Part shown: positions 2,008 through 35,746 of the stretch, piece after piece | Position numbering within the stretch: position 1 is the first letter of the stretch | How the letters are laid out: each line of letters begins with the position of its first letter | Source of the DNA: Escherichia phage mEp234 | DNA length: 39,578 nt | Sequence record: NC_019715.1 | Strand: one strand, 5' to 3' | Made by a program: the position numbers and the translations under genes | The notes under the pieces: model-generated | Told to the model about the DNA's origin: nothing | Seen by the model: only the letters and a program-made list of their open reading frames with translations | Database searches by the model: none

Positions 2008-3281
2008 TGGAAGAACCTAAATACACGATTGACCTGCGAACCAATAACGGCTGGTGGGCAAGGCTGCAGTCCTGGTTTGTCGGCGGGCGTTTAGTCACCC
2101 CAAATCAGGGCTCACAGACGGGGCCTGTTTCGGCCCACGGACACCTGGGCGATTCATCCATTAACGATGAACGGATACTGCAAATTTCGACTGTGTGGCG
2201 CTGCGTGAGCCTGATTTCAACGCTCACGGCATGCTTACCGCTTGATGTCTTCGAAACAGACCAGAATGACAACCGTAAAAAAGTGGATTTGAGCAATCCA
2301 CTGGCGCGACTGCTGCGCTACTCACCGAATCAGTACATGACCGCCCAAGAATTCAGGGAGGCCATGACGATGCAGCTCTGTTTCTACGGTAACGCATATG
2401 CACTTGTGGACCGCAACAGCGCAGGTGACGTGATCAGCCTTCTCCCGCTTCAGTCTGCCAATATGGATGTGAAGCTCGTCGGAAAAAAAGTGGTTTATCG
2501 CTATCAACGCGACAGCGAATACGCCGACTTTTCGCAGAAAGAGATTTTTCACCTTAAAGGCTTCGGATTCACCGGGCTTGTAGGCCTGTCACCCATTGCT
2601 TTTGCCTGTAAATCGGCAGGTGTGGCAGTTGCGATGGAGGACCAGCAGCGAGATTTCTTTGCCAACGGCGCCAAGTCTCCGCAAATCCTCTCAACTGGCG
2701 AAAAAGTGCTAACTGAACAGCAGCGCTCCCAGGTCGAAGAGAACTTCAAAGAGATCGCCGGCGGCCCGGTAAAAAAACGCCTCTGGATTCTGGAAGCGGG
2801 TTTTTCTACATCGGCAATTGGCGTAACTCCGCAGGATGCCGAAATGATGGCGTCCCGAAAATTTCAGGTAAGTGAACTGGCGCGATTCTTTGGCGTACCG
2901 CCTCACCTTGTCGGCGACGTCGAGAAATCAACGAGCTGGGGATCGGGCATCGAGCAGCAGAATCTCGGCTTCCTGCAGTACACCCTGCAGCCCTATATCT
3001 CCAGGTGGGAAAACAGCATTCAGCGGTGGCTTATTCCTGCTAAGGATGTTGGCCGCATTCATGCTGAGCACAACCTCGACGGCCTGCTGAGGGGCGATTC
3101 GGCATCCCGCGCTGCCTTTATGAAGGCAATGGGAGAGGCAGGGCTACGCACCATCAACGAGATGCGACGAACGGACAACCTCCCGCCATTGCCGGGTGGC
3201 GATGTGGCAATGCGCCAGTCGCAATACGTGCCGATCACCGATTTAGGAACCAACAAAGAGCCCCGTAATAACGGGGCTTAA
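2007..3281 (+). CDS. portal protein (HK97 family)
   Basis: 424 aa from ATG 2007, which overlaps the TerL stop (TGATG); track ORF starts at GTG 2004. Position after TerL. Confidence 0.85.
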   Translation: MEEPKYTIDLRTNNGWWARLQSWFVGGRLVTPNQGSQTGPVSAHGHLGDSSINDERILQISTVWRCVSLISTLTACLPLDVFETDQNDNRKKVDLSNPLARLLRYSPNQYMTAQEFREAMTMQLCFYGNAYALVDRNSAGDVISLLPLQSANMDVKLVGKKVVYRYQRDSEYADFSQKEIFHLKGFGFTGLVGLSPIAFACKSAGVAVAMEDQQRDFFANGAKSPQILSTGEKVLTEQQRSQVEENFKEIAGGPVKKRLWILEAGFSTSAIGVTPQDAEMMASRKFQVSELARFFGVPPHLVGDVEKSTSWGSGIEQQNLGFLQYTLQPYISRWENSIQRWLIPAKDVGRIHAEHNLDGLLRGDSASRAAFMKAMGEAGLRTINEMRRTDNLPPLPGGDVAMRQSQYVPITDLGTNKEPRNNGA

Positions 3282-3286
3282 TTTTT
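3259..3286 (+). terminator. stem-loop plus U-tract at portal 3' end (terminator-like)
   Basis: AGCCCCGT-AATA-ACGGGGCT 8-bp stem overlapping the portal stop, followed by TTTTT then ATGGGGG. Confidence 0.4.
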
Positions 3287-3298
3287 ATGGGGGCCGTA

Positions 3299-3976
3299 AT
3301 GCCTGAAATCGTAAAAACGCTGTCCTTCGACGAGACAGAAATCAAATTCACCGGTGACGGTAAACAGGGGATTTTTGAAGGCTACGCCTCTGTTTTTAAT
3401 AACACCGATTCCGATGGCGACATCATTCTGCCCGGGGCGTTTAAAAACGCGCTGGCGAACCAGACCCGAAAAGTGGCGATGTTTTTTAACCACAGGACGT
3501 GGGAACTGCCGGTTGGCAAATGGGACAGCCTGGCTGAGGACGAAAAAGGCCTGTATGTGCGCGGTCAACTTACCCCAGGACACAGCGGCGCCGCTGACCT
3601 AAAAGCGGCAATGCAGCACGGTACGGTTGAAGGTATGTCGGTTGGCTTTTCCGTTGCGAAAGACGATTACACCATCATTCCAACAGGCCGCATTTTTAAG
3701 AATATCCAGGCTCTGCGCGAAATCAGCGTCTGCACTTTCCCCGCCAACGAACAGGCTGGCATCGCAGCCATGAAAAGTGTCGATGGCATTGAAACGATTC
3801 GTGATGTGGAGAACTGGCTGAGGGATTCAGTCGGCCTCACCAAATCACAGGCAGTTGGGCTAATTGCCCGGTTTAAGTCAGCGATTCGGAGCGAGTCCGA
3901 GGGCGACGGAAACGAAGCACAAATAAACGCTCTGCTTCAGAGCATCAAATCTTTCCCTTCTAACTTAGGTAAATAA
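3299..3976 (+). CDS. prohead maturation protease (HK97 gp4-like)
   Basis: ORF 3287-3976; likely start ATG 3299 (MPEIVKT) 5 nt after a GGGGG run; between portal and capsid gene. Confidence 0.8.
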   Translation: MPEIVKTLSFDETEIKFTGDGKQGIFEGYASVFNNTDSDGDIILPGAFKNALANQTRKVAMFFNHRTWELPVGKWDSLAEDEKGLYVRGQLTPGHSGAADLKAAMQHGTVEGMSVGFSVAKDDYTIIPTGRIFKNIQALREISVCTFPANEQAGIAAMKSVDGIETIRDVENWLRDSVGLTKSQAVGLIARFKSAIRSESEGDGNEAQINALLQSIKSFPSNLGK

Positions 3977-3978
3977 TT

Positions 3979-5133
3979 ATGTCTGAACTCGCTCTCATTC
4001 AAAAAGCTATCGAAGAATCCCAGCAGAAAATGACCCAGCTTTTCGATGCGCAGAAAGCAGAAATCGAAAGCACAGGCCAGGTTTCCAAACAGTTGCAGTC
4101 CGACCTGATGAAAGTACAGGAAGAGCTGACCAAATCCGGCGCTCGCCTCTTCGATCTGGAACAGAAACTGGCATCCGGCGCTGAGAATCCTGGTGAGAAG
4201 AAATCCTTCTCTGAACGGGCTGCTGAAGAGCTTATTAAGTCATGGGACGGTAAACAGGGCACCTTTGGCGCTAAAACGTTTAACAAGTCACTAGGCAGTG
4301 ACGCTGATTCGGCTGGCTCACTGATCCAGCCTATGCAGATCCCAGGCATCATCATGCCAGGCCTGCGCCGTCTTACCATTCGTGATCTGCTGGCTCAGGG
4401 CCGCACTTCCAGTAACGCTCTGGAATATGTGCGTGAAGAGGTGTTTACCAATAACGCCGACGTGGTGGCAGAGAAAGCACTGAAGCCAGAATCGGATATC
4501 ACCTTCAGCAAACAAACCGCGAACGTGAAGACCATCGCGCACTGGGTGCAGGCATCACGTCAGGTGATGGATGATGCGCCAATGCTTCAGTCCTACATTA
4601 ACAACCGCCTCATGTACGGCCTGGCACTGAAGGAAGAGGGCCAGCTGCTGAACGGCGACGGTACCGGGGATAACCTGGAAGGGCTGAACAAAGTGGCAAC
4701 CGCCTATGACACCTCGCTGAATGCCACCGGCGACACCCGCGCTGACATTATCGCTCACGCTATTTATCAGGTGACCGAGTCTGAGTTCAGCGCTTCCGGT
4801 ATCGTCCTGAACCCGCGCGACTGGCACAACATCGCGTTGCTGAAAGACAATGAAGGCCGCTATATCTTCGGTGGTCCTCAGGCATTCACCAGTAACATCA
4901 TGTGGGGCTTGCCAGTGGTTCCGACTAAGGCGCAGGCCGCCGGCACCTTTACCGTAGGCGGTTTCGATATGGCCTCACAGGTCTGGGATCGCATGGATGC
5001 CACCGTGGAAGTTAGCCGTGAAGACCGCGATAACTTCGTGAAAAACATGCTGACCATCCTGTGCGAAGAGCGTCTGGCGCTGGCGCATTATCGCCCGACA
5101 GCAATCATCAAGGGCACCTTCTCTGCTGACTAA
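3979..5133 (+). CDS. major capsid protein (HK97 gp5-like, with N-terminal delta/scaffold domain)
   Basis: 384 aa; N-terminal coiled-coil MSELALIQKAIEESQQKMTQLFDAQKAEIE recalled as the HK97 gp5 delta domain; mature-domain motifs; strong terminator follows. Confidence 0.9.
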   Translation: MSELALIQKAIEESQQKMTQLFDAQKAEIESTGQVSKQLQSDLMKVQEELTKSGARLFDLEQKLASGAENPGEKKSFSERAAEELIKSWDGKQGTFGAKTFNKSLGSDADSAGSLIQPMQIPGIIMPGLRRLTIRDLLAQGRTSSNALEYVREEVFTNNADVVAEKALKPESDITFSKQTANVKTIAHWVQASRQVMDDAPMLQSYINNRLMYGLALKEEGQLLNGDGTGDNLEGLNKVATAYDTSLNATGDTRADIIAHAIYQVTESEFSASGIVLNPRDWHNIALLKDNEGRYIFGGPQAFTSNIMWGLPVVPTKAQAAGTFTVGGFDMASQVWDRMDATVEVSREDRDNFVKNMLTILCEERLALAHYRPTAIIKGTFSAD

Positions 5134-5142
5134 TGATGGAGG

Positions 5143-5166
5143 GGGCGGGGAAACCCGCCCTTTTAA
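5143..5166 (+). terminator. Rho-independent terminator after capsid gene
   Basis: GGGCGGG-GAAA-CCCGCCC (GNRA loop) followed by TTTT, 10 nt after the MCP stop. Confidence 0.6.
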
Positions 5167-5169
5167 CGT

Positions 5170-5496
5170 ATGGCGATAGATGTTCTGGATGTAATTCCCC
5201 TCAGTCTGTTTAAGCAGCAGATTGAGTTTGAGGAAGACGACAGGGACGAGCTGATCACGCTGTACGCCCAGGCCGCTTTTGACTACTGCATGCGCTGGTG
5301 CGATGAACCAGCATGGAAGGTTGCGGCTGATATTCCTGCCGCCGTTAAGGGCGCCGTTCTGCTTGTCTTTGCTGACATGTTTGAACACCGGACGGCACAA
5401 AGTGAAGTGCAGCTTTATGAGAATGCAGCCGCCGAACGCATGATGTTCATTCATCGCAACTGGCGCGGTAAAGCCGAATCAGAGGAGGGCTCCTGA
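5170..5496 (+). CDS. head-tail connector protein (gp6-like)
   Basis: 108 aa, first gene after capsid; synteny with HK97-type head-tail joining genes. Confidence 0.55.
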   Translation: MAIDVLDVIPLSLFKQQIEFEEDDRDELITLYAQAAFDYCMRWCDEPAWKVAADIPAAVKGAVLLVFADMFEHRTAQSEVQLYENAAAERMMFIHRNWRGKAESEEGS

Positions 5497-5834
5497 TGGA
5501 ACCGGGACGATTCAGGCACCGGGTAAAAATTCTCACCTTCACAACCTCGCGTGATCCATCTGGCCAGCCGGTTGAATCGTGGAGGGGTGGCAGGCCGATT
5601 TCTGCCGAGGTGAAGGGGATCAGCGGCAGAGAGCAGATGTCAGGCGGCGTGGAGACGGCGCAGGCAACTATTCGCGTCTGGATGCGCTTCAGGGCTGACC
5701 TGAACGCCTCTTCTCGTCTGGAAGTGCTAAGCGGGCCGTATAAAGGCCAGGTGCTAAATATCATCGGTCCTCCGGTAGCAAATTCGACCGGCACTCGCCT
5801 GGAAATTCTTTGCAAAACGGGAGCTGAAAAATGA
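5496..5834 (+). CDS. head closure / head-tail adaptor protein
   Basis: 112 aa, start overlaps upstream stop; synteny. Confidence 0.55.
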   Translation: MEPGRFRHRVKILTFTTSRDPSGQPVESWRGGRPISAEVKGISGREQMSGGVETAQATIRVWMRFRADLNASSRLEVLSGPYKGQVLNIIGPPVANSTGTRLEILCKTGAEK

Positions 5835-6280
5835 TAGAAACGAGCCTCGATTTTTCCGGCCTGAATGACATAGCAAAGGATCTGGAGGCGCTTAGCCGCG
5901 CTGAAAACAATAAGGTTCTTCGTGATGCCACGCGCGCCGGCGCGGAAGTGCTTAAGGAAGAAGTGATCGCACGTGCACCGGTACGCACCGGAAAACTGAA
6001 AAAAAACGTGGTGGTGGTTACCCAAAAAAGCCGCCGCCGCGGGGAGATTTCTTCCGGCGTCCATATTCGTGGCGTTAACCCGCGCACCGGCAACAGCGAT
6101 AACACGATGAAGGCGAATAACCCGAGAAACGCCTTTTACTGGCGATTCGTTGAGCTGGGCACCGCGAACATGCCTGCACATCCGTTTGTGCGACCCGCTT
6201 ACGATACGCGCGAGGAAGAGGCCGCCAGCGTCGCCATTGCCAGGATGAATCATGCTATTGATGAGGTATTGAGCAAGTGA
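5831..6280 (+). CDS. tail component (HK97 gp10-like family)
   Basis: 149 aa, overlapping start/stop with neighbours; position before tail terminator and major tail gene. Confidence 0.5.
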   Translation: MIETSLDFSGLNDIAKDLEALSRAENNKVLRDATRAGAEVLKEEVIARAPVRTGKLKKNVVVVTQKSRRRGEISSGVHIRGVNPRTGNSDNTMKANNPRNAFYWRFVELGTANMPAHPFVRPAYDTREEEAASVAIARMNHAIDEVLSK

Positions 6281-6624
6281 ATGAAGATAATATCTACGCC
6301 TTGCTTTCTCCCCTGGCAGAGGGGCGGGTATACCCCTATGTTGCGCCATTAGGTAGTGACGGGAAACCGTCTGTCTCTCCACCCTGGATTATCTTTTCCA
6401 TCGTCGATGATGTTTCCGCTGACGTACTGTGTGGCCAGGCAGAGAGCAGGGTTTCCGTTCAGGTCGATGTGTATGCCACAACGATCACTGAATCACGATC
6501 CCTGAGAGATTTGGCGCTCGCTTCGCTTAAGCAGTTAAACCCTACAGAGGTGGTAAAAATCCCCGGGTACGAGCCAGATTATCGGCTCTACCGTGCCACC
6601 CTGGATTTTAAAGTTACCCCCTGA
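6277..6624 (+). CDS. tail completion / tail terminator protein (gpU-position)
   Basis: 115 aa, last gene before major tail protein. Confidence 0.5.
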   Translation: MNEDNIYALLSPLAEGRVYPYVAPLGSDGKPSVSPPWIIFSIVDDVSADVLCGQAESRVSVQVDVYATTITESRSLRDLALASLKQLNPTEVVKIPGYEPDYRLYRATLDFKVTP

Positions 6625-6642
6625 CGATTAATTCACCCAACG

Positions 6643-6670
6643 AACCCGCCTGATGGCGGGTTTTCTTTTT
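6643..6670 (+). terminator. stem-loop plus U-tract upstream of major tail gene
   Basis: CCCGCC-TGAT-GGCGGG followed by TTTTCTTTTT; SD GGAG and ATG 6684 follow. Confidence 0.45.
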
Positions 6671-6683
6671 CCAGGAGACAGCT

Positions 6684-7388
6684 ATGTCTGCACTTTATGA
6701 AAAATCGCAGCTGACGAAGATCCTTATTTCCTCCCTGCCAGCCACCAAAGAAACGATGGATTCCGCCACCTTTCTCGATCTGAGTTGCACCATCAAAGAA
6801 ATTCAGTTCACTGGTGGCCAGAAGCAGGATATCGACGTAACAACACTTTGCTCTACCGAGCAGGAGAACATCAACGGCCTGCCTTCTCCGTCAGAAATCT
6901 CTCTGTCCGGCAACTTCTACAATAATCCAGCGCAGGACGCCTTGCGTGATGCGTATGACAACGACACCACTTACGGCTTCCAGATCATCTTCCCGTCAGG
7001 TAATGGTTTTAAGTTCCTGGCCGAAGTTCGCCAGCATACCTGGTCATCTGGTACCAATGGTGTTGTGGCAGCTACATTCTCACTGCGCCTTAAAGGCAAG
7101 CCTGTCCCGATTGACTCTGTACTTAAACTGACCACTGATCTTCCTTCCTCACTGTCTGTAGCGGTGGGGGCTGCGATCAGCATGGCTGTAGTAGCTGCCG
7201 GTGGTAAGCCTCCGTATGCCTACACCTGGAAGAAGGCAGGTAGCACCGTCAGCGGGCAGACATCCGATACCTTTAATAAAGCCACCGCAGTTTCAGGTGA
7301 TGCAGGTGATTACACCTGTGTGGTTACGGATTCTTCTTCTCCGGTCAAAACGGTTACCTCAGCTGCCTGCACCCTTACTATCAGTTAA
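6684..7388 (+). CDS. major tail protein with C-terminal Ig-like domain
   Basis: 234 aa; C-terminal ~80 aa (KPPYAYTWKKAGSTVSG...GDYTCVVTD) looks like a Big_2/Ig-like domain as on lambda gpV; precedes G/T chaperone genes. Confidence 0.8.
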   Translation: MSALYEKSQLTKILISSLPATKETMDSATFLDLSCTIKEIQFTGGQKQDIDVTTLCSTEQENINGLPSPSEISLSGNFYNNPAQDALRDAYDNDTTYGFQIIFPSGNGFKFLAEVRQHTWSSGTNGVVAATFSLRLKGKPVPIDSVLKLTTDLPSSLSVAVGAAISMAVVAAGGKPPYAYTWKKAGSTVSGQTSDTFNKATAVSGDAGDYTCVVTDSSSPVKTVTSAACTLTIS

Positions 7389-7422
7389 TGGAGATGCCGG
7401 GTTGTCCCGGCATGGATAAGCG

Positions 7423-7809
7423 ATGTCGCAAACTTTAAAACAATTAGCCATGGCGAAAATGGCTGGCTTTCGCCATAAGACGGTCGTTGTCCCTGAGTGG
7501 GAAGGTGTCAAAGTGGTTCTCCGTGAGCCGTCAGGTGAAGCCTGGCTGCGCTGGCAGGAGGTGGTGAAAGGGGGGGCCGACGATGAAAATGTGTCGGTAT
7601 CGGAAAAGGCGCACCGTAATCTTTGCGCTGACGTGGTGCTCTTCATTGACGTTCTGTGTGACACCGATAAGCAACCGGTATTCAGCGTAGACGAAGAAGA
7701 GCAGGTGCGTGAAATTTACGGGCCAGTGCACTCACGTCTGCTCAAACAGGCGCTTGACCTGATCAACAATGCGGACGAAGCGCGGGAAAAGTCTCAACCC
7801 CCGGCGTAA
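7423..7809 (+). CDS. tail assembly chaperone G
   Basis: 128 aa directly upstream of an overlapping out-of-frame ORF (T) and the tape measure gene; classic G/GT arrangement. Confidence 0.75.
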   Translation: MSQTLKQLAMAKMAGFRHKTVVVPEWEGVKVVLREPSGEAWLRWQEVVKGGADDENVSVSEKAHRNLCADVVLFIDVLCDTDKQPVFSVDEEEQVREIYGPVHSRLLKQALDLINNADEAREKSQPPA

Positions 7810-8096
7810 AGTTTCTGATGTCGCTTGCGCTCCGGATGGGGCGCACGCTCTCAGAGCTTCGGCAGAATATGACGGCAAGCGAGCTTCTGATGTGGATTGA
7901 GTACGACAGGCAAAGCCCGGTTGGCGATATTCGCGGTGATATCCATGCAGCGCAGATTGTCTCTGCCATCTACGGCTCGCAGGGGGCAAAAGTACCGCTG
8001 GACGATGCGATCCTGCGCTGGGGTGGTGATGAGCAATCAGAACCGAAGGACCCGTTTGCAGGGCTTGAGGCGGCACTTACAGCTGCGACACAATAA
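7758..8096 (+). CDS. tail assembly protein T segment (expressed as G-T fusion by programmed -1 frameshift)
   Basis: The -1 frame relative to G is open from 7758 to 8096; GGGAAAAG at 7784-7791 resembles the lambda G/T slippery site GGGAAAG. Confidence 0.6.
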   Translation, partial: PDQQCGRSAGKVSTPGVKFLMSLALRMGRTLSELRQNMTASELLMWIEYDRQSPVGDIRGDIHAAQIVSAIYGSQGAKVPLDDAILRWGGDEQSEPKDPFAGLEAALTAATQ

Positions 8097-8153
8097 TTGC
8101 TTCACATGCCTTCAATGTAGCGATACGCTCTTTCCTTAAGTAAAGGAGGCGTT

Positions 8154-8342
8154 ATGGAACCACTGGTAGTAGTGTTTGGAATATTCGGCTGGCTGATAAA
8201 TCTAATTGTGATTTTTTATTTATTACGGTTTAGCACAAGGGCAAATGAACAAGTTGAAGCCCTTAAAGAGATAAATAAAAAGCAAGATGCGCAAATAGAT
8301 TTATTAATACAAGTCGCTCACCAAAGAAAAGACAGTTTATAA
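8154..8342 (+). CDS. small single-pass membrane protein, HK97 gp15/YebO-like (candidate superinfection exclusion)
   Basis: 62 aa; strong SD AAGGAGG; N-terminal TM helix then RFSTRANEQVEALKEI; AT-rich; located between T and tape measure, the position of HK97 gp15. Confidence 0.55.
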   Translation: MEPLVVVFGIFGWLINLIVIFYLLRFSTRANEQVEALKEINKKQDAQIDLLIQVAHQRKDSL

Positions 8343-8348
8343 CTCACG

Positions 8349-8372
8349 ACCCGCTATCAAGCGGGTTTTTTT
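8349..8372 (+). terminator. stem-loop plus U-tract after gp15-like gene
   Basis: ACCCGCT-ATCA-AGCGGGT then TTTTTTT, immediately followed by ATGGGTGAAAATATG. Confidence 0.5.
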
Positions 8373-8384
8373 ATGGGTGAAAAT

Positions 8385-11300
8385 ATGGCTACGTTGCGCG
8401 AACTGATCATCAAAATATCTGCAAACTCTCAGTCATTCCAGTCTGAAATTTCTCGTGCTTCAAGAATGGGGAATGACTATTACCGGGTAATGCAGACTGG
8501 AGGACGCCAATCGGCCGCAGCTTCGCGTGAAACTCAGCGTGCCTTGGCTGAGGTAACTAGTCAAATAAACACCGCGAAGGCCTCAGCACTGGGAATGGCT
8601 GGTGCATTTGCTGGAGCATTTGCGACTGGTCATCTTATATCGCTGGCCGATGAATGGAGCTCTATTAATGCCAGGCTAAAGCAGGCTTCCCAGTCGTCAG
8701 ATGATTTCACGGAGTCCCAGCGGGCGCTGATGGATATTAGCCAGCGAACCGGAACCGCCTTCTCTGATAATGCGAGTCTTTTTGCGCGTTCAGCCGCTTC
8801 TATGCGTGAATATGGCTACAGTTCAGAAGAGGTTCTGAAGGTAACCGAGGCTATATCAACAGGGCTTAAGCTGTCAGGCGCAAGCGCGTCTGAAGCGAGT
8901 TCGGTAATCACGCAGTTCAGCCAGGCTCTGGCGCAGGGTGTTCTTCGAGGCGAGGAATTTAACTCCGTCAACGAAAACGGTGATCGAGTTATCCGTGCTC
9001 TTGCCGCAGGGATGGGTGTAGCTCGTAAAGATCTGAAGGCAATGGCCGATCAGGGGATGCTAACCGCAGATAAAGTTGTCCCGGCCCTGATAAGTCAACT
9101 TGGCACTATGCGTGGTGAATTTGAGGCAATGCCGCAGACCGTTTCTGCTGCCACGACGAAAGTCGAAAATGCTTTCATGGCATGGGTAGGTGGCGCTAAT
9201 GAAGCCACTGGTGCGACAAGTACTCTTGTTGCCGTATTGAATACGGTTTCTGACAATATAGACACTGTGGCTACGGCTGCCGGAGCTTTGGCTGCGATAG
9301 GTGGAGCTCGCTATCTTGGAGGGATGTTTGGCGATCTTGGGAACCAGACGGCGCAATTAATAGATGCCAGAAAGAACGAAATTGCGCTCGCAGCTGCAAG
9401 GGCTGAATCTGCTACCCAATCACAACGCAAGGCCGCCGCCGATGCTATTGCTGCTGAGCGAGCTTACCAGCTTGCTCAGTCAGAACTTGTGCTGGCAAAG
9501 AATACTAATGCTGAGGCTACTGCCACTCAAAATGCCATATCCAAGCGCCGGGCAATGATTACAGCAAATGCGGCACTGGTACAGTCAAACAGAGCCGTTG
9601 CAGCCTCTCAGCAGGCACTTAACTCTGCAACATCAGTGCTGGGGCTTGTAAAAACTGGCGCTACGGGTCTTTTGTCGTTAGTTGGTGGTTTGCCAGGAAT
9701 TTTAATGTTGGGTGCTGGGGCGTGGTACACGATGTATCAACGCCAAGAACAAGCCAGGGAATCTGCAATCAAATATGCGGACACAATAGAGCAGGTACGA
9801 GATAATCTGAAATCAATGTCTCAGACGCAGATATCCGCCAACCTTGGACAGGCGAATATTTCACTGGATGCTCAGAATAGTGCGATTGAACAGCAGAAGC
9901 AGAAAGTTGCTGAATTATCCAATCAACTTTATAACGCAAAATTAGCAGCCAATTCTGCTTCAGAGGGGACATGGCTGTATAACGATGCGGTTGAGAAAGC
10001 CGCAGACTTTGCTTCAGAACTTGCGGTTGAAGAAGGCCGACTTGAGCAAATGCTCAATAAAAGAAAGCAAACACAACAGTTAATAAACGACATAACTGAT
10101 CAGGCTATAAATAAAACAGTAGAAATGGCTGGCGCCGTAAGTTCTCTTACAGAGATGTATGACCGGCTGAACAAGGTTTCCAGACAGTCTACAGCAGTGT
10201 CCCCACCAAAATATGCAGGACCTGTACTTCCTGCGCTTGATAATAAGCAACAACAAGCTATTGAGAAAGCACAGCGACAGCTTGAGTTATCTGGCCTTCA
10301 GGGTTTGGATAAGGCTCGAAAGCAGGCAGAATTCGATGCATCTGATCTGAACCTTCCAGCTGGTTGGCGTGAGAAATATGTCAGCATGGAAGTTGAGTCT
10401 GCCAGGCAATTACAAGCAATTCGTAACTCAAGCCGCCATAAGGGTGGAAAATCCGAGGCGGAAAAAACAGCTGATACCTATGACAAGCTGATCAAGCAGC
10501 AAAAAGAGCAGATCGCTCTGCAAGGGCAGAATACCGAGCTGGCAAAGGTTAAATATCAGGTAAGCCAGGGTGAGCTTTCTACGCTAAGTCAGGCCCAGAA
10601 AGCCGAAGTTATGCGTAATGCTGCTCTCATCGATCAGGTTAAATTGCGTGAGCAACTGCGAAATTACGAAGCCAACCTTGCTGACAGTAACGCCAGCGCC
10701 CGCGCAGCCAATGAAGCGCAACTGCTGGGATACGGGCAGGGAACCAGGTTCCGTGAAAGACTTCAGGAGCAGTTCAATCTGCGTAAGGAGTTTGAGCAGA
10801 AGAATACCGATCTTCTCCGCCAGCGTCAGGCTGGTGAAATCGACGAGACGTTCTATCAGCAGGGGCTGGCACTTAATAAGCGCTACCTCGAAGAGCGCCT
10901 GCGCGACCAGGAGGGATATTACGCAGCTTCTGATGCGCAGCGTGACGACTGGATGACGGGACTGTCTGAGGGTTATGCGAACTGGGTGGACGAAGCGACA
11001 GATTACTCCTCCATGGCCGCTGACGGCATGAAGCAGGCCATGGGTGGCGCGGTCACCACGATCACCGACATGCTCAATGGCAACGTTGACAGCTGGAAGG
11101 ACTGGGGCGTGAGCGTACTGAAGATCATCCAGAACGTTCTGGTGAACATGGCTGTTGCTAACGGCGTCAGTTCAATTGGTTCTCTCTTCAGCTTTGGCGC
11201 ATCTTCCGCCGCTGCCGCCAGTAGCGGTACTGCAATTCAGAACGCTGGCGCGAACTTCACCTTTAACGCGAAGGGTAATGTTTACGACTCTCCGTCCCTG

Positions 11301-11651
11301 AGCGCATACAGCAATGGCGTGTTTCAGACCCCTCAGCTTTTTGCTTTTGCCAAAGGAGCGGGTGTGTTTGCAGAGGCTGGACCTGAAGCCATTATGCCGC
11401 TTACCCGTGCTGCTGATGGTTCGCTTGGCGTTCGGGCTGTTGGCACTGGTGGTGGTCAGGCTGTATCTTCGGCTCCACAGGTTTACATCACCATCGATGG
11501 CAACGGAAATACTTCCACGCAGACTTCACCCGGCCTTGAGCAATTTGGTGCTGATGTCGGTAAATATATTGATCAGCGATATAAGCAGAACATCATGCGA
11601 GATATTCGCCCTGGCGGTGACATCTGGAACGCAATGAAAGGAACCCGATAA
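8385..11651 (+). CDS. tail tape measure protein
   Basis: About 1090 aa, alanine/glutamine-rich with long coiled-coil stretches; follows G/T. Track ORF begins at ATG 8373, which abuts the U-tract; ATG 8385 is the more likely start. Confidence 0.9.
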   Translation: MATLRELIIKISANSQSFQSEISRASRMGNDYYRVMQTGGRQSAAASRETQRALAEVTSQINTAKASALGMAGAFAGAFATGHLISLADEWSSINARLKQASQSSDDFTESQRALMDISQRTGTAFSDNASLFARSAASMREYGYSSEEVLKVTEAISTGLKLSGASASEASSVITQFSQALAQGVLRGEEFNSVNENGDRVIRALAAGMGVARKDLKAMADQGMLTADKVVPALISQLGTMRGEFEAMPQTVSAATTKVENAFMAWVGGANEATGATSTLVAVLNTVSDNIDTVATAAGALAAIGGARYLGGMFGDLGNQTAQLIDARKNEIALAAARAESATQSQRKAAADAIAAERAYQLAQSELVLAKNTNAEATATQNAISKRRAMITANAALVQSNRAVAASQQALNSATSVLGLVKTGATGLLSLVGGLPGILMLGAGAWYTMYQRQEQARESAIKYADTIEQVRDNLKSMSQTQISANLGQANISLDAQNSAIEQQKQKVAELSNQLYNAKLAANSASEGTWLYNDAVEKAADFASELAVEEGRLEQMLNKRKQTQQLINDITDQAINKTVEMAGAVSSLTEMYDRLNKVSRQSTAVSPPKYAGPVLPALDNKQQQAIEKAQRQLELSGLQGLDKARKQAEFDASDLNLPAGWREKYVSMEVESARQLQAIRNSSRHKGGKSEAEKTADTYDKLIKQQKEQIALQGQNTELAKVKYQVSQGELSTLSQAQKAEVMRNAALIDQVKLREQLRNYEANLADSNASARAANEAQLLGYGQGTRFRERLQEQFNLRKEFEQKNTDLLRQRQAGEIDETFYQQGLALNKRYLEERLRDQEGYYAASDAQRDDWMTGLSEGYANWVDEATDYSSMAADGMKQAMGGAVTTITDMLNGNVDSWKDWGVSVLKIIQNVLVNMAVANGVSSIGSLFSFGASSAAAASSGTAIQNAGANFTFNAKGNVYDSPSLSAYSNGVFQTPQLFAFAKGAGVFAEAGPEAIMPLTRAADGSLGVRAVGTGGGQAVSSAPQVYITIDGNGNTSTQTSPGLEQFGADVGKYIDQRYKQNIMRDIRPGGDIWNAMKGTR

Positions 11652-11653
11652 AA

Positions 11654-11992
11654 ATGGCTATCGAAACTTTCACCTGGTGCCCACGACTTAACGCTGAGGC
11701 AGATATAAATTTCCGCGTCAGGAAAGCACAGTTTGGTGATGGATATGAGCAGGTTTCAGGGGATGGATTGAACACCAGAACCCAGCAATGGACGCTCAAC
11801 TTCACTGGCAACGAAACCTACATTTCTGCCATTAAATCTTTTCTCGACAGGCATGAAGGAACGAAAGCCTTTCAATGGAAGCCACCGCTCGAACCTTTGG
11901 GTTTGTATCGTTGCGAAACGTATAAACCCACCGGGCTTGGCGCGGGGAAATTCAACCTTGAAGCAACATTCATCCAGGCATTTAAACCATGA
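11654..11992 (+). CDS. minor tail protein M
   Basis: 112 aa immediately after tape measure; lambda gpM-like size and position. Confidence 0.75.
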   Translation: MAIETFTWCPRLNAEADINFRVRKAQFGDGYEQVSGDGLNTRTQQWTLNFTGNETYISAIKSFLDRHEGTKAFQWKPPLEPLGLYRCETYKPTGLGAGKFNLEATFIQAFKP

Positions 11993-12747
11993 GCTTAAAC
12001 GCAGATTATCAGAAGCTGGAATCCGGAAACGATGTTCGTCTGATTGAGGTGGACGGTTCTTCCTTTGGGCTAACGGACGTTCTCCGCTTTCACAATTACA
12101 GCATTCCCCACACAGAAGCGGAAATCATCGCCGCTGGTGGGGATGAGTCCAAGCTTCCGGCGAAACCAATCTGGTGGCAGGGAAATGAATACGCCGCCTG
12201 GCCGTATCAGCTGGAAGGTCTGGAGAAATCAACCAGTGGGAGCAATGCAACGCCATCACTGACGGTTGCGAACATCGAAAGCTCCATTTCTGCTCTGTGT
12301 CTTGCGTATGACGATCTGCTGCAGGCTAAAGTCACTATTCACGACACAAAAGAGAAATATCTCGATGCCAGGAATTTCGCAGACGGTAACCCTTCTGCAG
12401 ACCAGACTCAGGAAAAGCTGCAGGTCTGGTATATCGACGGGAAAACGGGCGAGCTTGCCGGTGAAACCGTTGAATTTGTTCTGTCCAGCCCGATGGACCT
12501 GCAGGGGCAAATGATCCCGACGCGACAGCTTCATTCCCTGTGTACCTGGTGCATCCGGAATAAATATCGCACCGGCGACGGCTGCGACTATGCCGGCACC
12601 CGCTATTTCGACAAAAACAACAACCCGGTAAGCGATCCGTCGCTGGATGAATGCAACGGCACGCTGACGGCCTGCAAACTCCGATTCGGCGAAAATAACG
12701 AACTCTCGTTTGGTGGCTTCCCGGGCACGTCTTTGATCAGGAGTTGA
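11989..12747 (+). CDS. minor tail protein L
   Basis: 252 aa; C-terminal cysteine cluster (CTWC...C...C) as in lambda gpL; synteny. Confidence 0.8.
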   Translation: MSLNADYQKLESGNDVRLIEVDGSSFGLTDVLRFHNYSIPHTEAEIIAAGGDESKLPAKPIWWQGNEYAAWPYQLEGLEKSTSGSNATPSLTVANIESSISALCLAYDDLLQAKVTIHDTKEKYLDARNFADGNPSADQTQEKLQVWYIDGKTGELAGETVEFVLSSPMDLQGQMIPTRQLHSLCTWCIRNKYRTGDGCDYAGTRYFDKNNNPVSDPSLDECNGTLTACKLRFGENNELSFGGFPGTSLIRS

Positions 12748-12748
12748 T

Positions 12749-13459
12749 ATGCGTCAGAAAACCGTCGATGAGATTATGGCGCATGCTGCAGCTGAATATC
12801 CTCGCGAGTGTTGCGGCGTGGTGGCGCAGAAAAGCCGTGTTGAACGTTATTTCCCGTGCCGGAATCTTGCCGCGGCGCCGGAGGACAATTTTGTCCTTTG
12901 CCCGGAAGATTACGCAGCTGCTGAGGACTGGGGTACGGTGATCGCCATCGTTCACAGTCACCCTGACGCCACAACGCAACCGAGCGAACTGGATAAAGCG
13001 CAATGCGACGCAACGCTTTTACCCTGGCACATCGTGAGCTGGCCTGAGGGGGATTTGCGCACCATCCAGCCGCGTGGGGAACTGCCGCTGCTGGAGCGTC
13101 CGTTTGTGCTTGGCCACTTCGACTGCTGGGGTCTGGTAATGAGCTATTTCCGGCAAACGCATGGTATCGAGCTCCACGATTACCGGGTTGATTATCCCTG
13201 GTGGGAAAACGACTATCCGGACAACTTCTATCAGGATTGCTGGTATGAGTGCGGATTCCGTGAATTCGACGGACCACCGAAACCCGGCGATATGGTGATC
13301 ATGCAGGTCCAGGCTGATAAGTGGAACCACGCTGGAATTCTGCTGGAGGGCAATATGCTGCTGCACCACCTGTACGGACATCTGAGCCAGCGCGTGCCGT
13401 ATGGTGGCTACTGGCAGGAAAGGACGATGAAGATTCTTAGACATCAGAATTTTATTTAA
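12749..13459 (+). CDS. tail assembly protein K (JAB/MPN plus NlpC/P60 domains)
   Basis: 236 aa; HSHP metal-site motif (VHSHPD), C-terminal Cys/His peptidase-like region; lambda gpK synteny. Confidence 0.8.
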   Translation: MRQKTVDEIMAHAAAEYPRECCGVVAQKSRVERYFPCRNLAAAPEDNFVLCPEDYAAAEDWGTVIAIVHSHPDATTQPSELDKAQCDATLLPWHIVSWPEGDLRTIQPRGELPLLERPFVLGHFDCWGLVMSYFRQTHGIELHDYRVDYPWWENDYPDNFYQDCWYECGFREFDGPPKPGDMVIMQVQADKWNHAGILLEGNMLLHHLYGHLSQRVPYGGYWQERTMKILRHQNFI

Positions 13460-13506
13460 CAAACTGTCACTGATACTATCGTGTAGTACACAGCAAGGAG
13501 AACGAT

Positions 13507-13731
13507 ATGTATACAGTTGGGTTTGGTTGGATCTTCGTCGGTATTTTTATTGGGTTAATTCTCTGGTTTTTCATCAACCGCGCCAGCGTCAGAGCGAACA
13601 GGCAGGTTGAATTACTTGAGTCTATCGACCAGAAATTATCAAAAATAGTAGATCCAAACTTCGAGGCAAATAACAAAGACCAGTCGAAAGAAAACTACCT
13701 TGAAGAAGCAAGGAAAAAAGCTGGGCTTTGA
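13507..13731 (+). CDS. small single-pass membrane protein, paralogue of the gp15/YebO-like gene
   Basis: 74 aa; SD AAGGAG; TM helix then INRASVRANRQVELLESI, the same architecture as the 8154-8342 protein; AT-rich; own hairpin/U-tract follows. Confidence 0.5.
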   Translation: MYTVGFGWIFVGIFIGLILWFFINRASVRANRQVELLESIDQKLSKIVDPNFEANNKDQSKENYLEEARKKAGL

Positions 13732-13746
13732 GAGCGTAAATTAACA

Positions 13747-13769
13747 AACCACCTACGGGTGGTTTTTTT
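13747..13769 (+). terminator. stem-loop plus U-tract after second membrane-protein gene
   Basis: CCACC-TACG-GGTGG then TTTTTTT, followed by ATGGGGGCAGCATG. Confidence 0.5.
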
Positions 13770-13780
13770 ATGGGGGCAGC

Positions 13781-14389
13781 ATGCAAGAGGTAATGACAAG
13801 AATTGAGCTAAGTGGCGTGCTAGCTAAGACATATGGAAGGGTTCATCACCGTCTGGTTCGCACTACTGCTGAAGCCATTAATGCACTCGCGAAAACCATC
13901 AATGGATTCGAGAAATTCTTAAACACAAGCAAAGCCCGAGGGCTGACGTATGCCGTTTATAGAGATAAAAAGAATATTGGCGTTGATGATCTCGGCTTTC
14001 CCGTCACCGGCGAAGTGATCCGGATTGTCCCTGTAGTAATAGGGAGTAAAAAGGCTGGTCTTTTGCAGACGATCTTGGGGGCCGTGCTTATTACTGCTGC
14101 TGTGTTGACTGGAGCCGGCGGTATTGGCGCTGCTTTCGCTGCTGGTGGATTGACGGGGTTTGCTGCTGCCACTGGTGCCTCGTTGGTCCTCGGTGGGGTT
14201 ATTCAGCTGCTTTCACCGCAGCCATCAGGCATAGCCAGTAAACAAAGCGCAGATAACCGTGCATCGTATGCGTTTGGCGGGGTAACCAACACTGCAGCGC
14301 AAGGCTACCCGGTGCCTCTGCTTTATGGTAAGCGTCGAATCGGCGGAGCGATTATTTCTGCCGGAATTTATGTCGAAGATCAGCAGTAG
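13781..14389 (+). CDS. tail assembly protein I
   Basis: 202 aa; glycine/alanine-rich hydrophobic C-terminal half; between K and J. Confidence 0.75.
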   Translation: MQEVMTRIELSGVLAKTYGRVHHRLVRTTAEAINALAKTINGFEKFLNTSKARGLTYAVYRDKKNIGVDDLGFPVTGEVIRIVPVVIGSKKAGLLQTILGAVLITAAVLTGAGGIGAAFAAGGLTGFAAATGASLVLGGVIQLLSPQPSGIASKQSADNRASYAFGGVTNTAAQGYPVPLLYGKRRIGGAIISAGIYVEDQQ

Positions 14390-14408
14390 ATAACTAACCT
14401 TTTTTCTG

Positions 14409-14430
14409 GCCACCTTCGGGTGGCTTTTTT
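14409..14430 (+). terminator. stem-loop (UUCG tetraloop) plus U-tract upstream of J
   Basis: GCCACC-TTCG-GGTGGC then TTTTTT, followed by ATGGGCGCAATATG. Confidence 0.45.
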
Positions 14431-14441
14431 ATGGGCGCAAT

Positions 14442-17400
14442 ATGGCTACAGATAAAGTGTTAAAAGGCCGCAAGGGCGGCAGCTCAAGTTCCCGAACCCC
14501 TACCGAACAGCCTGATGATCTGCAATCTGTAGCGAAGGCAAAGATCCTCGTTGCGCTTGGGGAAGGGGAGTTTGCTGGACAGCTCACCGGGAAGGATATC
14601 TACCTGGACGGAACAGCGCTGGAGAATGCTGACGGCTCCCAAAACTTCAGCGGGGTAACGTGGGAGTTTCGCGCGGGAACGCAGGCGCAAAAATATATTC
14701 AGGGTATTCCCGGTACCGAAAACGAGATCAGCGTAGGAACTGAGGTATCAAGTGCCACAGCCTGGACGCGCACGTTTACCAATACGCAGCTTTCAGCAGT
14801 TCGCCTGCGTCTTAAATGGCCCTCGCTTTTCAAACAGGAAGACGACGGCGATCTGGTGGGTTACTCGGTCAATTATGCGATTGACCTGCAGACGGACGGC
14901 GGCACATGGCAGACGGTACTCAATACCAGCGTGACCGGCAAAACGACGTCTGGTTATGAGCGCAGCCACCGTATCGATTTACCGCAGGCTGGCAGCACAT
15001 GGACAATACGTCTGCGTAAGATTACCTCTGACGCCAACAGCGCGAAGATCGGCGACACGATGATGCTGCAGAGCTTCACCGAGGTGATTGATGCCAAACT
15101 GCGCTACCCGAACACCGCGCTGCTCTACGTCGAATTCGACTCAAGCCAGTTCAACGGCTCTATTCCTCAAATTTCATGCGAACCGCGCGGCCGCGTTATC
15201 CGCGTTCCAGATACCTACGACCCTGAAACCCGCACTTATAGCGGTACATGGACCGGTGCGTTTAAGTGGGCATGGACGGATAACCCTGCGTGGATTTTTT
15301 ACGACCTGGTTGTTTCTGACCGGTTTGGCCTCGGGCACCGTTTGACCGCTGCGAATATTGATAAATGGACTCTTTATCAGGTTGCTCAGTATTGTGATCA
15401 GATGGTACCAGACGGCAAAGGGGGCAACGGTACAGAACCACGCTATACCTGCAACGTGTACATTCAGGACCGGAACGACGCCTACACAGTCCTGCGTGAT
15501 TTTGCCGCTATCTTCCGTGGCATGACCTACTGGGGCGGGGATCAGATTGTGGCCCTGGCTGACATGCCGCGCGATGTTGATTACAGCTATACGCGCGCTA
15601 ACGTTGTTGGCGGTCGCTTCACCTATTCGAGCAGCACCACGAAAAGCCGCTACACCACAGCGCTGGTTTCATGGTCAGATCCGGGTAACGCTTATGCCGA
15701 CGCAATGGAGCCGGTATTTGAGCAGGCGCTGGTGGCGCGATACGGCTTCAATCAGCTGGAAATGACAGCCATCGGCTGCACCAGGCAGTCAGAGGCGAAC
15801 CGAAAGGGGCGCTGGGGTATTCTCACCAACAACAAGGATCGCGTTGTTTCGTTTGATGTCGGGCTGGACGGAAACATTCCGCAGCCGGGCTACATCATCG
15901 CCGTGGCAGACGAGCTGCTTTCCGGAAAGGTTATGGGCGGCCGCATCAGCGCCGTTAACGGTCGCGTTATCAAACTTGACCGCGTAGCTGATGCAGCACC
16001 AGGTGATCGCCTTATTCTCAACCTGCCTTCCGGAGCGTCGCAGAGCAGGACCATTCAGGCCGTGAACGGGGAATCAGTCACAGTCACCACGGCATACAGT
16101 GAGACGCCACAGGCCGAAGCTGTTTGGGTTGTTGAATCTGACGAGCTTTACGCGCAGCAGTATCGTGTTGTCAGCGTCTCCGACAACGGTGATGGCACTT
16201 TCTCAATCACCGGCGCATGGCACGACCCGGATAAATATGCCCGCATCGATACCGGAGCCATCATTGACCAGCGGCCGGTGAGCGTGATCCCGCCTGGTAA
16301 CCAGTCGCCGCCTGCGAACATCGTGATCAGCTCGTTTTCCGTGGTGCAGCAAAATATCAGCGTCGAAACGATGCGCGTGAGCTGGGACCAGGCGCAGAAC
16401 GCTATCGCCTATGAAGCGCAATGGCGCCGCAACGACGGGAACTGGGTTAACGTGCCGCGCACCTCCACCACGTCATTCGACGTCCCGGGGATTTATGCCG
16501 GGCGCTACCTGGTGCGGGTGCGCGCAATCAATGCCGCAGAAATTTCATCCGGATGGGGCTATTCAGAAGAGAAAACGCTGACGGGTAAAGTGGGCAATCC
16601 ACCGAAGCCGGTTGGCTTCATCGCTTCTGAAAATGTGGTTTTCGGCATCGAGCTGAACTGGGGATTCCCGGCGAATACCGACGACACGCTGAAGACGGAA
16701 ATTCAGTACAGCCTGACCGGAACCGAGGACGATGCGATGCTGCTGGCCGATGTGCCTTATCCGCAGCGCAAATATCAGCAGATGGGCCTCAAGGCTGGGC
16801 AGATTTTCTGGTACCGCGCTCAGCTGGTGGACCGCAGCGGCAACGAATCAGGGTACACAGAATGGGTGCGAGGACAGGCCAGCATCGATGTTTCCGACAT
16901 CACAGATGTGATCCTGGAGGACATGAAAGGCTCCGATACGTTCAAAGACCTGATCGAGAACGCTGTGGACAGCAATGAAAAAATTGCTGGCATGGCTGAC
17001 GAAATCAAAAACCATGCCGACGAACTCGAGCAGCAGGCGAAAGACATCCAGGAAAACGCTGACGGGCTGGCCCAGGCCGAAGTGAAGATCGACGAGATTT
17101 CTGTGTCGATGGATGGCATGACGGGAGGCGTGAAGAACTCGGCAATCGCGATTATCCAGAATGGGCTGGCGCAGGTTGTCAGTCGTCGTTCCCAGACCGC
17201 GACAAACGCAGGGAACAGCGCCAGCATTGACCGTATCGACACGACCATAGCCGACACCAGCTCGGCGGTTGCTCGCGCGCTGGTGACGCTGGATGCTTCA
17301 GCTGGTGGGAATATCTCCAACTCTACCGATCTCACTGAAACTCTGGCCGATTTCACGCAGGCATCGGCGACAAAAATTAACACCCTGAATGTTAAATCTG

Positions 17401-19197: not shown

Positions 19198-19224
19198 AAA
19201 CCTCGCCTCGGCGGGGTTTTTTAT
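19198..19224 (+). terminator. Rho-independent terminator after lipoprotein gene
   Basis: CCTCGC-CTCG-GCGGGG (one G:U) followed by TTTTTTATT; SD GGAG and ATG 19239 follow. Confidence 0.5.
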
Positions 19225-19238
19225 TGCCTGGAGAAAAT

Positions 19239-32314: not shown

Positions 32315-32394
32315 TGACCATCTACATCACTGAGCTAATAACAGGCCTGCTGGTAATCGCAGGCCTTTTTATTTGGGGGAGAGGGAAGTCATGA
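32314..32394 (+). CDS. 26-aa hydrophobic peptide ORF (uncertain)
   Basis: [26 protein letters not shown]; ATG overlaps the helicase stop (TGATG) with a strong SD AAGGAGG 6 nt upstream; ends overlapping the ninB start. Confidence 0.2.
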   Translation: MTIYITELITGLLVIAGLFIWGRGKS

Positions 32395-34345: not shown

Positions 34346-34988
34346 TGGCAGCAAATACCGAAATATTTGGGTAGTTGGCGATCTGCACGGATGCTACACG
34401 AACCTGATGAAAAAACTGGAGACGATAGGATTCGACACCAAAAAAGACCTGCTTATCTCGGTTGGCGATTTGGTCGATCGCGGTACAGAGAACGTCGAAT
34501 GCCTGGAATTAATCACATTCCCCTGGTTCAGAGCTGTACGTGGAAACCATGAGCAAATGATGATTGATGGCTTATCAGAGCGCGGAAACGTCAATCACTG
34601 GATGCTTAATGGCGGTGGCTGGTTCTTTAATCTCGATTACGACAAAGAAATTCTGGCTAAAGCTCTTGCCCATAAAGCAGATGAACTTCCGTTAATCATC
34701 GAACTGGTGAGCAAAGATAAAAAATATGTCATCTGCCACGCCGATTATCCTTGTGACGAATACGAGTTTGGAAAGCCAGTTGATCATCAGCAGGTAATCT
34801 GGAACCGCGAACGAATCAGCAACTCACAAAACGGGATCGTGAAAGAAATCAAAGGCGCGGACACGTTCATCTTTGGTCATACGCCAGCAGTGAAACCACT
34901 CAAGTTTGCCAACCAAATGTATATCGATACCGGCGCAGTGTTCTGCGGAAACCTAACATTGATTCAGGTACAGGGAGAAGGCGCATGA
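34323..34988 (+). CDS. ninI: NinI serine/threonine protein phosphatase
   Basis: 221 aa from ATG 34323 ([25 protein letters not shown]...GNHE), metallophosphatase motifs; matches lambda PPase as recalled. Confidence 0.9.
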
Positions 34989-35608
34989 GACTCGAAAGCG
35001 TAGCTAAATTTCATTCGCCAAAAAGCCCGATGATGAGCGACTCACCACGGGCCACGGCTTCTGACTCTCTTTCCGGTACTGATGTGATGGCTGCTATGGG
35101 GATGGCGCAATCACAAGCCGGATTCGGTATGGCTGCATTCTTCGGTAAGCACGAACTCAGCCAGAACGACAAACAAAAGGCTATCAACTATCTGATGCAA
35201 TTTGCACACAAGGTATCGGGGAAATACCGTGGTGTGGCAAAGCTTGAAGGAAATACTAAGGCAAAGGTACTGCAAGTGCTCGCAACATTCGCTTATGCGG
35301 ATTATTGCCGTAGTGCCGCGACGCCGGGGGCAAGATGCAGAGATTGCCATGGTACAGGCCGCGCGGTTGATATAGCAAAAACAGAGCAGTGGGGGAGAGT
35401 TGTTGAGAAAGAGTGCGGAAGATGCAAAGGTGTCGGCTATTCAAGGATGCCAGCAAGCGCCGCATATCGCGCTGTAACGATGCTAATCCCAAACCTTACT
35501 CAACCCACCTGGTCACGCACTGTTAAGCCGCTGTATGACGCTCTGGTGGTGCAATGCCACAAGGAAGAGTCAATCGCAGACAATATCTTGAATGCGGTCA
35601 CACGTTAG
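34985..35608 (+). CDS. Q: Q late-gene antiterminator
   Basis: 207 aa, zinc-binding CRDCHGTG...CGRCKG; matches lambda Q as recalled; followed by a PR'-like promoter. Confidence 0.9.
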
Positions 35609-35650
35609 CAGCATGATTGCCACGGATGGCAACATATTAACGGCATGATA

Positions 35651-35679
35651 TTGACTTTTTGAATAAAGTTGGGTAAATT
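35651..35679 (+). promoter_or_regulatory. late promoter PR' (qut region follows)
   Basis: -35 TTGACT (35651-35656), 17-bp spacer, -10 TAAATT (35674-35679), ~45 nt downstream of Q; matches lambda PR' as recalled. Confidence 0.7.
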
Positions 35680-35717
35680 TGACATCAACGATGGATAAAT
35701 TCACTCGTTAAATAAAG

Positions 35718-35746
35718 CCCTGAGTTAATATCTCGGGGTTTTTTGC
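35718..35746 (+). terminator. terminator close to PR' (tR'-like)
   Basis: CCCTGAG-ttaatat-CTCGGGG (one G:U) followed by TTTTTT, about 55 nt after the predicted PR' start. Confidence 0.55.

Follow-up and report, generated by a model that had tools for sequence, protein, structure and literature searches.

Terminator-like hairpins and adjoining putative ribosome-binding sites at the gene-block boundaries of the late operon of phage mEp234

Why should an operon that is read by a terminator-resistant polymerase keep strong terminators at each boundary between its gene blocks? The question is raised by Escherichia phage mEp234 (NC_019715.1), whose DNA of 39,578 nucleotides (nt) was analysed as one stretch and is called here the window. 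Ahead of the genes for the protease and the tape measure protein (H), and ahead of genes I and J, a reading made from the sequence alone had noticed the same succession of elements: a stem-loop, a run of T, the string ATGGG and, shortly after, the start codon of the gene. The cassette so formed is probably a Rho-independent terminator set directly against the ribosome-binding site of the next gene, at which ordinary RNA polymerase would stop and polymerase modified by the Q antiterminator would read through. The anatomical part of this reading, a terminator abutting a Shine-Dalgarno sequence (SD), is held with high confidence, while to insulation against transcription not driven by Q as the main benefit we give an even chance.

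The window is that of an HK97-family lambdoid phage; over positions 3000-15000 its identity is 100% with Escherichia phage mEp234, 99.8% with HK106 and 97.6% with HK97. The late genes follow the order terminase, portal, protease, capsid, connector genes, major tail gene, G/T, H, M, L, K, I, J and side tail fibre gene (stf), and the control region of the operon is also found:

34985..35742, + strand: late-operon control region, with the Q antiterminator gene (34985-35608, PF03589), a pR'-like promoter (35651-35679) and a tR'-like terminator (35714-35742)

Since the Q gene, the pR'-like promoter and the tR'-like terminator all lie in the window, the cassettes sit in a Q-controlled late operon, and the earlier description of intrinsic-terminator-like structures inside such an operon is upheld.

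The comparison set consisted of 83 sequences, namely the window and 82 relatives (L001-L082); lambda (L083), T1 (L084, AY216660) and a Pseudomonas phage (L086) are referred to besides. In all 83 sequences 21 late-gene starts were placed by blastx, and the sequences upstream of them were then compared; a hairpin was counted at a junction if it lay at most 45 nt from the gene start, the counts being made over distinct junction sequences. A search of the whole window against Rfam 15 gave zero family matches at or above the gathering score.

Anatomy of the four cassettes

Hairpin, T-run, ATGGG and gene ATG are present as claimed at all four sites. Their parts are given below, where a moron is a unit of promoter, open reading frame (ORF) and terminator inserted between late genes:

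3258..3279, + strand: cassette 1 hairpin, GAGCCCCGT-AATA-ACGGGGCTT, overlapping the final codons and the stop of the portal gene; a terminator in the HK97 and HK106 records
3282..3293, + strand: cassette 1, end of the U-tract and putative SD; TTTTTAT (3282-3288) and GGGGG (3289-3293), protease ATG at 3299, spacer 5 nt
8348..8367, + strand: cassette 2 hairpin, 3' of the gp15-like (YebO-like) moron gene and 5' of the tape measure gene H; an annotated terminator
8366..8380, + strand: cassette 2, U-tract and putative SD; T7 plus AT (8366-8374) and GGGTGA (8375-8380), H ATG at 8385
13746..13765, + strand: cassette 3 hairpin, 3' of the gp20-like (YebO-like) moron gene and 5' of gene I; an annotated terminator
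13763..13776, + strand: cassette 3, U-tract and putative SD; T7 plus AT, then GGGGG (13772-13776), I ATG at 13781
14408..14425, + strand: cassette 4 hairpin, between I and J at a moron-free junction
14425..14435, + strand: cassette 4, U-tract and putative weak SD; T6 plus AT, then GGG (14433-14435), J ATG at 14442

The string is ATGGGGG at site 1 (3287-3293) and site 3 (13770-13776), ATGGGTGA after T7 at site 2 (8373-8380) and ATGGG at site 4 (14431-14435), and from its A to the gene ATG there are 12 nt at the protease and H genes and 11 nt at I and J. At all four sites the structure has the GC stem and short loop of an intrinsic terminator, the stems being of 7-9 base pairs (bp), with 4-6 GC pairs, closed by tetraloops. 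Minimum-free-energy folds contain stable 8-9 bp tetraloop hairpins, which are found in the centroid folds too, and in these predicted folds the SD lies outside the hairpin. The U-rich tract directly 3' of the stem is present as well, with site 1, where it is interrupted (TTAATTTTT), as the weaker match.

The repeated pattern is real and far above chance. Four copies of the 10-mer TTTTTATGGG occur in the window, all on the + strand, where 0.04 were expected, and none of 100 shuffles reached four. Moreover, the coding (+) strands of the 83 sequences hold 155 copies of TTTTATGGG and the - strands one, and for hairpin, T-run and ATGGG in succession the figures are 149 and 2, an orientation that follows the genes.

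At site 1 a second helix is predicted (3282-3317), in which the U-tract and the G-run are paired with protease codons 3-7 (GCCU..UCGUAAAAA). For the minimum-free-energy structure the ensemble frequency is 0.47, and for the 71-nt segment the z-score is -3.67; according to this model, the second helix could mask the SD.

The ATGGG seam

ATGGG is a seam, at which the end of the U-rich tract (..UUUAU) meets a G-rich SD, and is neither a separate motif nor a start codon. It had been presented as an element of its own, which the relatives contradict: AT closes the T-run in about 72 of the 99 distinct junction tails, at all junction types and irrespective of the SD that follows, and the GGG is exchanged for other SDs in orthologues. 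At the I junction the T-run is followed, across relatives, by ATGGGGGC, ATGGAGAA, ATTTAGGAG, ATGGTGAG, ATTGGGGTGA or ACTGGGG, GGGGG alternating with GGAG, AGGAG, GGTGA and GGGGTGA. The H junction varies between ATGGGTGAAAT, ATTTGGTGAAAGC and ACGGGTGAAAA, with GGTGA retained while ATGGG changes to ATTTGG or ACGGG; the major tail junction shows ATCTGGAG, AACTGGAG and CCAGGAG, and the stf junction ATTGCCTGGAG.

The G-run is likely to be the SD, judging from its complementarity to the 3' end of 16S rRNA and from the canonical SDs that occupy the same position in orthologous junctions. The calculated SD:anti-SD duplex energies are -8.4 kcal/mol for the protease gene, -8.3 for H and -8.4 for I, beside -7.4 for the major tail gene, and in orthologues GGAG, AGGAG or GGTGA takes its place; the proposal that the G-run serves as the SD is backed at these three cassettes, and at J it fares less well, the duplex there reaching only -2.6 kcal/mol. 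The spacers to the start codon are of 5, 4, 4 and 6 nt at sites 1-4, inside the usual range of about 4-9 nt, and in the relatives the spacing measured from the 3' end of the duplex is mostly 2-5 nt. As for J, ATGGGCGCAAT is kept in 46 of its 49 junctions.

A further explanation would have the AUG of ATGGG used as a start, yielding an N-terminal extension of the protease and H proteins or an upstream ORF tuning I and J. In the window this AUG is in frame with the protease gene (3287) and with H (8373), and the U-rich tract before it could bind ribosomal protein S1. The frame, however, is not conserved (12 nt against 11 nt), since the first ATG stands 11 nt from the start, and out of frame, at the HK022-type H junction, at the protease junction of L074 and at I and J; many orthologous junctions have AUU, ACU or AAU in place of the AUG, an SD upstream of it is absent, and the curated HK97 and HK106 records begin the genes at the second ATG. 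An extension or upstream ORF from the first ATG was rejected because neither the frame nor the ATG itself is conserved, and use of this AUG is regarded as highly improbable. For annotation, the first ATG 3' of these hairpins in HK97-like phages is not that of the gene start, and a G-run that adjoins the 3' end of a terminator U-tract can be a ribosome-binding site.

Placement, morons and possible functions

The hairpins appear to mark each boundary between the translationally coupled gene blocks of the late operon. Among distinct junctions they were counted at the protease gene in 11/14, the major tail gene in 32/33, H in 23/23, I in 49/62, J in 49/51 and stf in 28/31; at the coupled junctions, where the gene start overlaps or abuts the preceding stop, no hairpin was counted for the portal gene, the capsid gene, gp11, M or K, and a single one for each of gp7, gp10 and L. 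In the window itself, every gap of at least 17 nt has a hairpin (8/8), the three promoter-side gaps before moron genes being excluded.

At these positions the structure is conserved more than the letters. The J junctions hold 30 distinct hairpin sequences, the major tail hairpin persists down to 48% identity of the major tail proteins, and the portal/protease hairpin is conserved in relatives with a protease 72-81% identical; in L074 the latter is altered on both arms (GAACCTCGC/GCGGGGTTT) despite its coding position. Pairing extends to 89% of the cells of the pooled stem alignment; with the register slid it was 38-55% in five of six cases, and the sixth, the +3 slide, gave 92%, but on only 90 of the 227 cells. 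One stem pair covaries (AU 22, GC 14, UA 1), and these covariation counts are conservative because the MAFFT alignment of the pooled cassettes left some stems out of register; a covariance model was not built, as hairpins at different junctions are not demonstrably homologous. Furthermore, every listed J tail and almost every listed H tail has kept a run of T5-8, a strictness that speaks for selection on termination itself, not on the hairpin alone.

Beyond the four cassettes, three more hairpins with U-tracts had been pointed out in the late region, and a fourth hairpin was found after the major tail gene:

6642..6677, + strand: major tail hairpin (6642-6663) with the same layout, U-tract and canonical putative SD AGGAG (6673-6677); ATG at 6684
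19198..19233, + strand: stf hairpin (19198-19219) with the same layout, after the cor-like moron gene; TTTTTTAT, putative SD GGAG (19230-19233), stf ATG at 19239
5138..5169, + strand: post-capsid hairpin of a second class; SD-like GGAGG (5138-5142), hairpin (5143-5160), 9 nt spacer, gp6 ATG at 5170, poor U-tract
7390..7422, + strand: post-major-tail hairpin of the second class; GGAG (7390-7393), hairpin (7394-7413), 9 nt spacer, G ATG at 7423, no U-tract

The U-tracts before the major tail gene and stf are good, as had been stated; that after the capsid gene consists of four T only and is lost in the relatives L013, L053 and L074, which keep the arrangement. At gp6 and G the order of the elements is reversed, the SD-like GGAG(G) lying directly 5' of the hairpin and an AUG-proximal SD being absent (-3.8 and -3.2 kcal/mol). 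By analogy, this arrangement resembles the split ribosome-binding sites of T4 genes 38 and 25, in which a hairpin brings a distant SD near the start codon.

Cassettes 2 and 3 and the stf hairpin lie directly 3' of moron genes (gp15-like, gp20-like and cor-like, respectively). They resemble moron terminators in that they would terminate the moron transcripts; they differ in that hairpins also stand at the same junctions of moron-free phages. At the T/H junction a hairpin is present in all 45 loci, 35 of them moron-free, and between I and J the gap is of 48-63 nt, and moron-free, in 65 of 75 loci, 63 of which have the hairpin. HK97 has two moron genes in this gap, and the hairpin downstream of them is almost the same, with a difference in the loop only (GCCACC-TTTG-GGTGGC against GCCACC-TTCG-GGTGGC). 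A terminator that forms part of the inserted unit should be absent where the flanking genes adjoin, which is not what was found; the hairpin therefore belongs to the junction and was not brought by the moron, and the junction sequences suggest that morons use resident terminators. Insulation of morons, proposed earlier, fails as the whole explanation, for the hairpins occur in moron-free junctions and at the same junctions of virulent T1: stopping moron transcripts cannot be the full answer.

As regards the morons themselves, the gp15-like (8154-8342) and gp20-like (13507-13731) products are both YebO-like (PF13974; E-values 1.2e-9 and 1.8e-12), the window thus carrying two paralogous YebO-family morons at different tail-gene junctions. 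The K/I junction is an almost universal insertion slot, with 321-2260 nt of variable sequence in 75 of 79 loci (L001-L082); the K-I interval is of 2.4 kb in the Pseudomonas phage (L086, 9753-12923), and K and I overlap in lambda. Upstream of stf, a small lipoprotein-like ORF of 77 amino acids (18947-19180) has no Pfam hit, and the T1 record has the Cor lysogenic-conversion protein at that place. The best promoter-like site of the late region, with 10/12 matches, lies upstream of this ORF (18807-18836), so that promoter-like site, ORF and its own downstream hairpin make up a complete moron-like unit (18807-19219).

In another explanation, the cassettes would go back to one mobile or recombinogenic linker, of which they would be paralogous copies, spread with morons and mediating module exchange. 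The mobile regulatory cassettes of T4-type phages, named PeSLs, are a documented precedent, with a strong sigma-70 promoter, a long conserved sequence and demonstrable recombination (Arbiol et al. 2010, PMC2839356). The likeness consists in small repeated intergenic units with a terminator stem-loop, tied to variable genes (PMC2839356), the four copies here having a 10-mer in common; moreover, a single J 5' sequence type occurs behind 8 different upstream types, and morons, where present, lie directly upstream of a hairpin also found in moron-free phages. The longest strings common to the protease, H, I and J cassettes are of 10-15 nt, and only I/J pairs, in 9 of 75 loci, reach perfect direct repeats of 20-29 nt. 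On the other hand, the copies in the window share only 10-13 nt, with different stems, and the common part is explained by the end of the U-tract plus the SD; unlike PeSLs, no cassette has a promoter-like site. Reassortment tables (90 nt on each side) gave one four-gamete quartet at J and zero at I, H and the major tail gene, which says nothing beyond ordinary mosaicism, and mosaic joints at gene borders are to be expected anyway from selection for intact genes. A mobile linker is therefore considered improbable.

The direct repeats are of some interest in themselves: formed by the I and J cassettes, they flank I (e.g. AAGCCACCTTCGGGTGGCTTTTTTTATGG) in relatives including L032, L043, L057 and L024, which suggests duplication or gene conversion between neighbouring cassettes.

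We return to the terminator set against the ribosome-binding site. We infer that ordinary RNA polymerase started at moron promoters or at stray prophage promoters would stop at the cassettes, non-Q transcription being thereby kept from spreading from block to block, and that Q-modified polymerase coming from pR' would read through them. In the long Q transcript the hairpin would stay as a stable structure just 5' of an exposed SD, and the G-rich SD, 4-6 nt before the real AUG, would drive translation of the next block.

Two explanations place the function in the lytic cycle instead. According to the first, the hairpins are lytic attenuators, at each of which the Q-modified polymerase partly terminates, a stepwise fall of transcript setting the stoichiometry of the products; the terminator Tphi after gene 10 of T7 offers the comparison. 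The genes for the low-copy proteins H, I and J each follow a strong hairpin with T6-7, and T1, which has no lysogenic state, has terminators at T/tape measure, at I/J and around the capsid gene. Against this, the block after site 1 is that of protease and capsid, and far more of its product is required than of the terminase and portal proteins encoded upstream; a hairpin likewise stands before the major tail gene. Because both junctions precede genes for very abundant proteins, attenuation alone fits poorly there. Furthermore, lambda builds a similar tail without hairpins at T/H and K/I, and polymerase modified by lambda Q is known to read through terminators efficiently. Attenuation is accordingly judged unlikely.

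The second, which seems to us just as unlikely, assigns the hairpins a function in the read-through mRNA, either as barriers to exonucleases or RNase E that set the half-lives of the blocks, or as insulators that keep the ribosome-binding sites unpaired. They lie exactly at the boundaries between translationally coupled blocks, with the SD outside the hairpin in the predicted folds; those at 5143-5160 and 7394-7413, flanking the capsid and major tail genes, are conserved without a usable U-tract, and the lambda I/J hairpin survives with a degenerate one. A stabiliser or insulator would not, however, need the T5-8 runs that are so consistently kept at J and H.

Two other candidates were set aside. 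An RNase III processing hairpin of the T7 type (about 20 bp, two helical turns) was rejected, the stems being of 7-9 bp only. An antiterminator in which the SD pairs with the hairpin's 5' arm, as judged from the sequences only, is possible at site 1 (GCCCC with GGGGC) and inconsistent at the other three, and was dropped.

Several points weigh against the terminator reading with which we began. At site 1 the U-tract is broken by AA (CUUAAUUUUUAU), and the hairpin lies within the portal reading frame, where a translating ribosome would melt it; the SD of J is weak, though its sequence is highly conserved. Hairpins are absent before V, H and I of lambda, and are therefore dispensable for building this kind of tail. 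The same junction hairpins are found in virulent T1, so that prophage insulation is not the only or the ancestral benefit. Finally, a full-text literature search gave no 3'-end mapping for HK97-type phages (nor any account of the ATGGG seam). The T1 result, together with the two hairpins without usable U-tracts, argues for an added role in lytic transcripts, be it partial termination or stabilisation of mRNA segments.

Comparison with known systems

A junction of the same layout is known from the early operon of lambda, and its counterpart is present in the window:

32343..32394, + strand: early-operon precedent, with hairpin, TTTTTATTT, GGGGGAGAGGGAAG and ATG; identical to the lambda ren-ninB intergenic sequence

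This site, which we take to be the lambda terminator tR2, is read through by antiterminated polymerase. As in the late cassettes, the tR2-ninB junction consists of hairpin, UUUUUAUUU, the G-rich SD GGGGGAG and AUG; it differs in belonging to the early right operon, which is N-antiterminated, being suppressed by early antitermination and not by Q, and in its longer spacer from the U-tract to the AUG.

In the late operon of lambda, the I/J junction keeps a hairpin (AACCGCC-TGCG-GGCGGTT, then TTGTCATTTATGGAGCGTGAGGAATG) whose stem is as in some HK97-like phages and whose U-tract has decayed. A strong terminator-like hairpin (GAACCCGCC..GCGGGTTT, then TCTTTTGT) is also found at lambda 4484-4505, inside gene C and about 50 nt past the end of the portal gene B; it is a positional analogue of the HK97-like portal/protease hairpin.

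Virulent T1, with an L protein 46% identical, has rho-independent terminators and ribosome-binding sites recorded at T/tape measure, at I/J, after J and around the capsid gene. The likeness extends to the layout: hairpin, T6-7, (AT)GGAG, GGTGG or GGGGGGG, and ATG follow one another at T/tape measure, decoration/Ig, orf46/connector and J/next gene, with a terminator also at I/J; at T/tape measure the order is hairpin, T6, CGTATATAGGGGGGGTTAT, ATG, and several sites read hairpin, T7, ATGGAG or ATGGTGG. T1 differs in that it is not temperate and has no Q-type late operon, and in that at M/L and I/J an extended -10-like sequence stands between the terminator and the ribosome-binding site. These sequences (T1 10875-10946 and 13054-13133; TGTAGAAT and TGTATAAT) suggest terminator-promoter pairs in place of read-through. 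In the Pseudomonas phage, with an L protein 52% identical, hairpins follow the capsid gene and precede the major tail gene and I.

A wider generalisation, which we offer tentatively and think rather doubtful, is that terminator-like hairpins are fixed marks at every boundary between coupled blocks in the structural operons of those siphophages that have lambda-type tail tips, conserved in position from HK97-like phages and lambda (at I/J) to virulent T1 and the Pseudomonas phage. If it were true, the hairpins would serve the lytic cycle irrespective of lysogeny, and a moron, having no terminator of its own, would settle directly 5' of a resident one and make use of it.

The closest systems are HK97 and HK106 themselves. 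Putative factor-independent terminators of the HK97/HK022 late operon were reportedly set out by Juhala and co-workers in 2000. As to the GenBank records consulted for the terminators of this type of operon (AF069529, JQ086369), that of HK97 (AF069529) places putative terminators at portal/protease, capsid/gp6, gp11/major tail, major tail/G and gp15/H, before I and before J, and that of HK106 gives rho-independent terminators at the matching positions, except major tail/G and before J. The sites are the same as in the window, with 97.6-99.8% identity over 3000-15000; the records differ from the present description in leaving the abutting SD and the shared TTTTTATGGG unmarked. The hairpins are thus already known features of this phage group and the recurrent ATGGG has an ordinary explanation, the results being modest refinements of the picture drawn in 2000 and not a new system.

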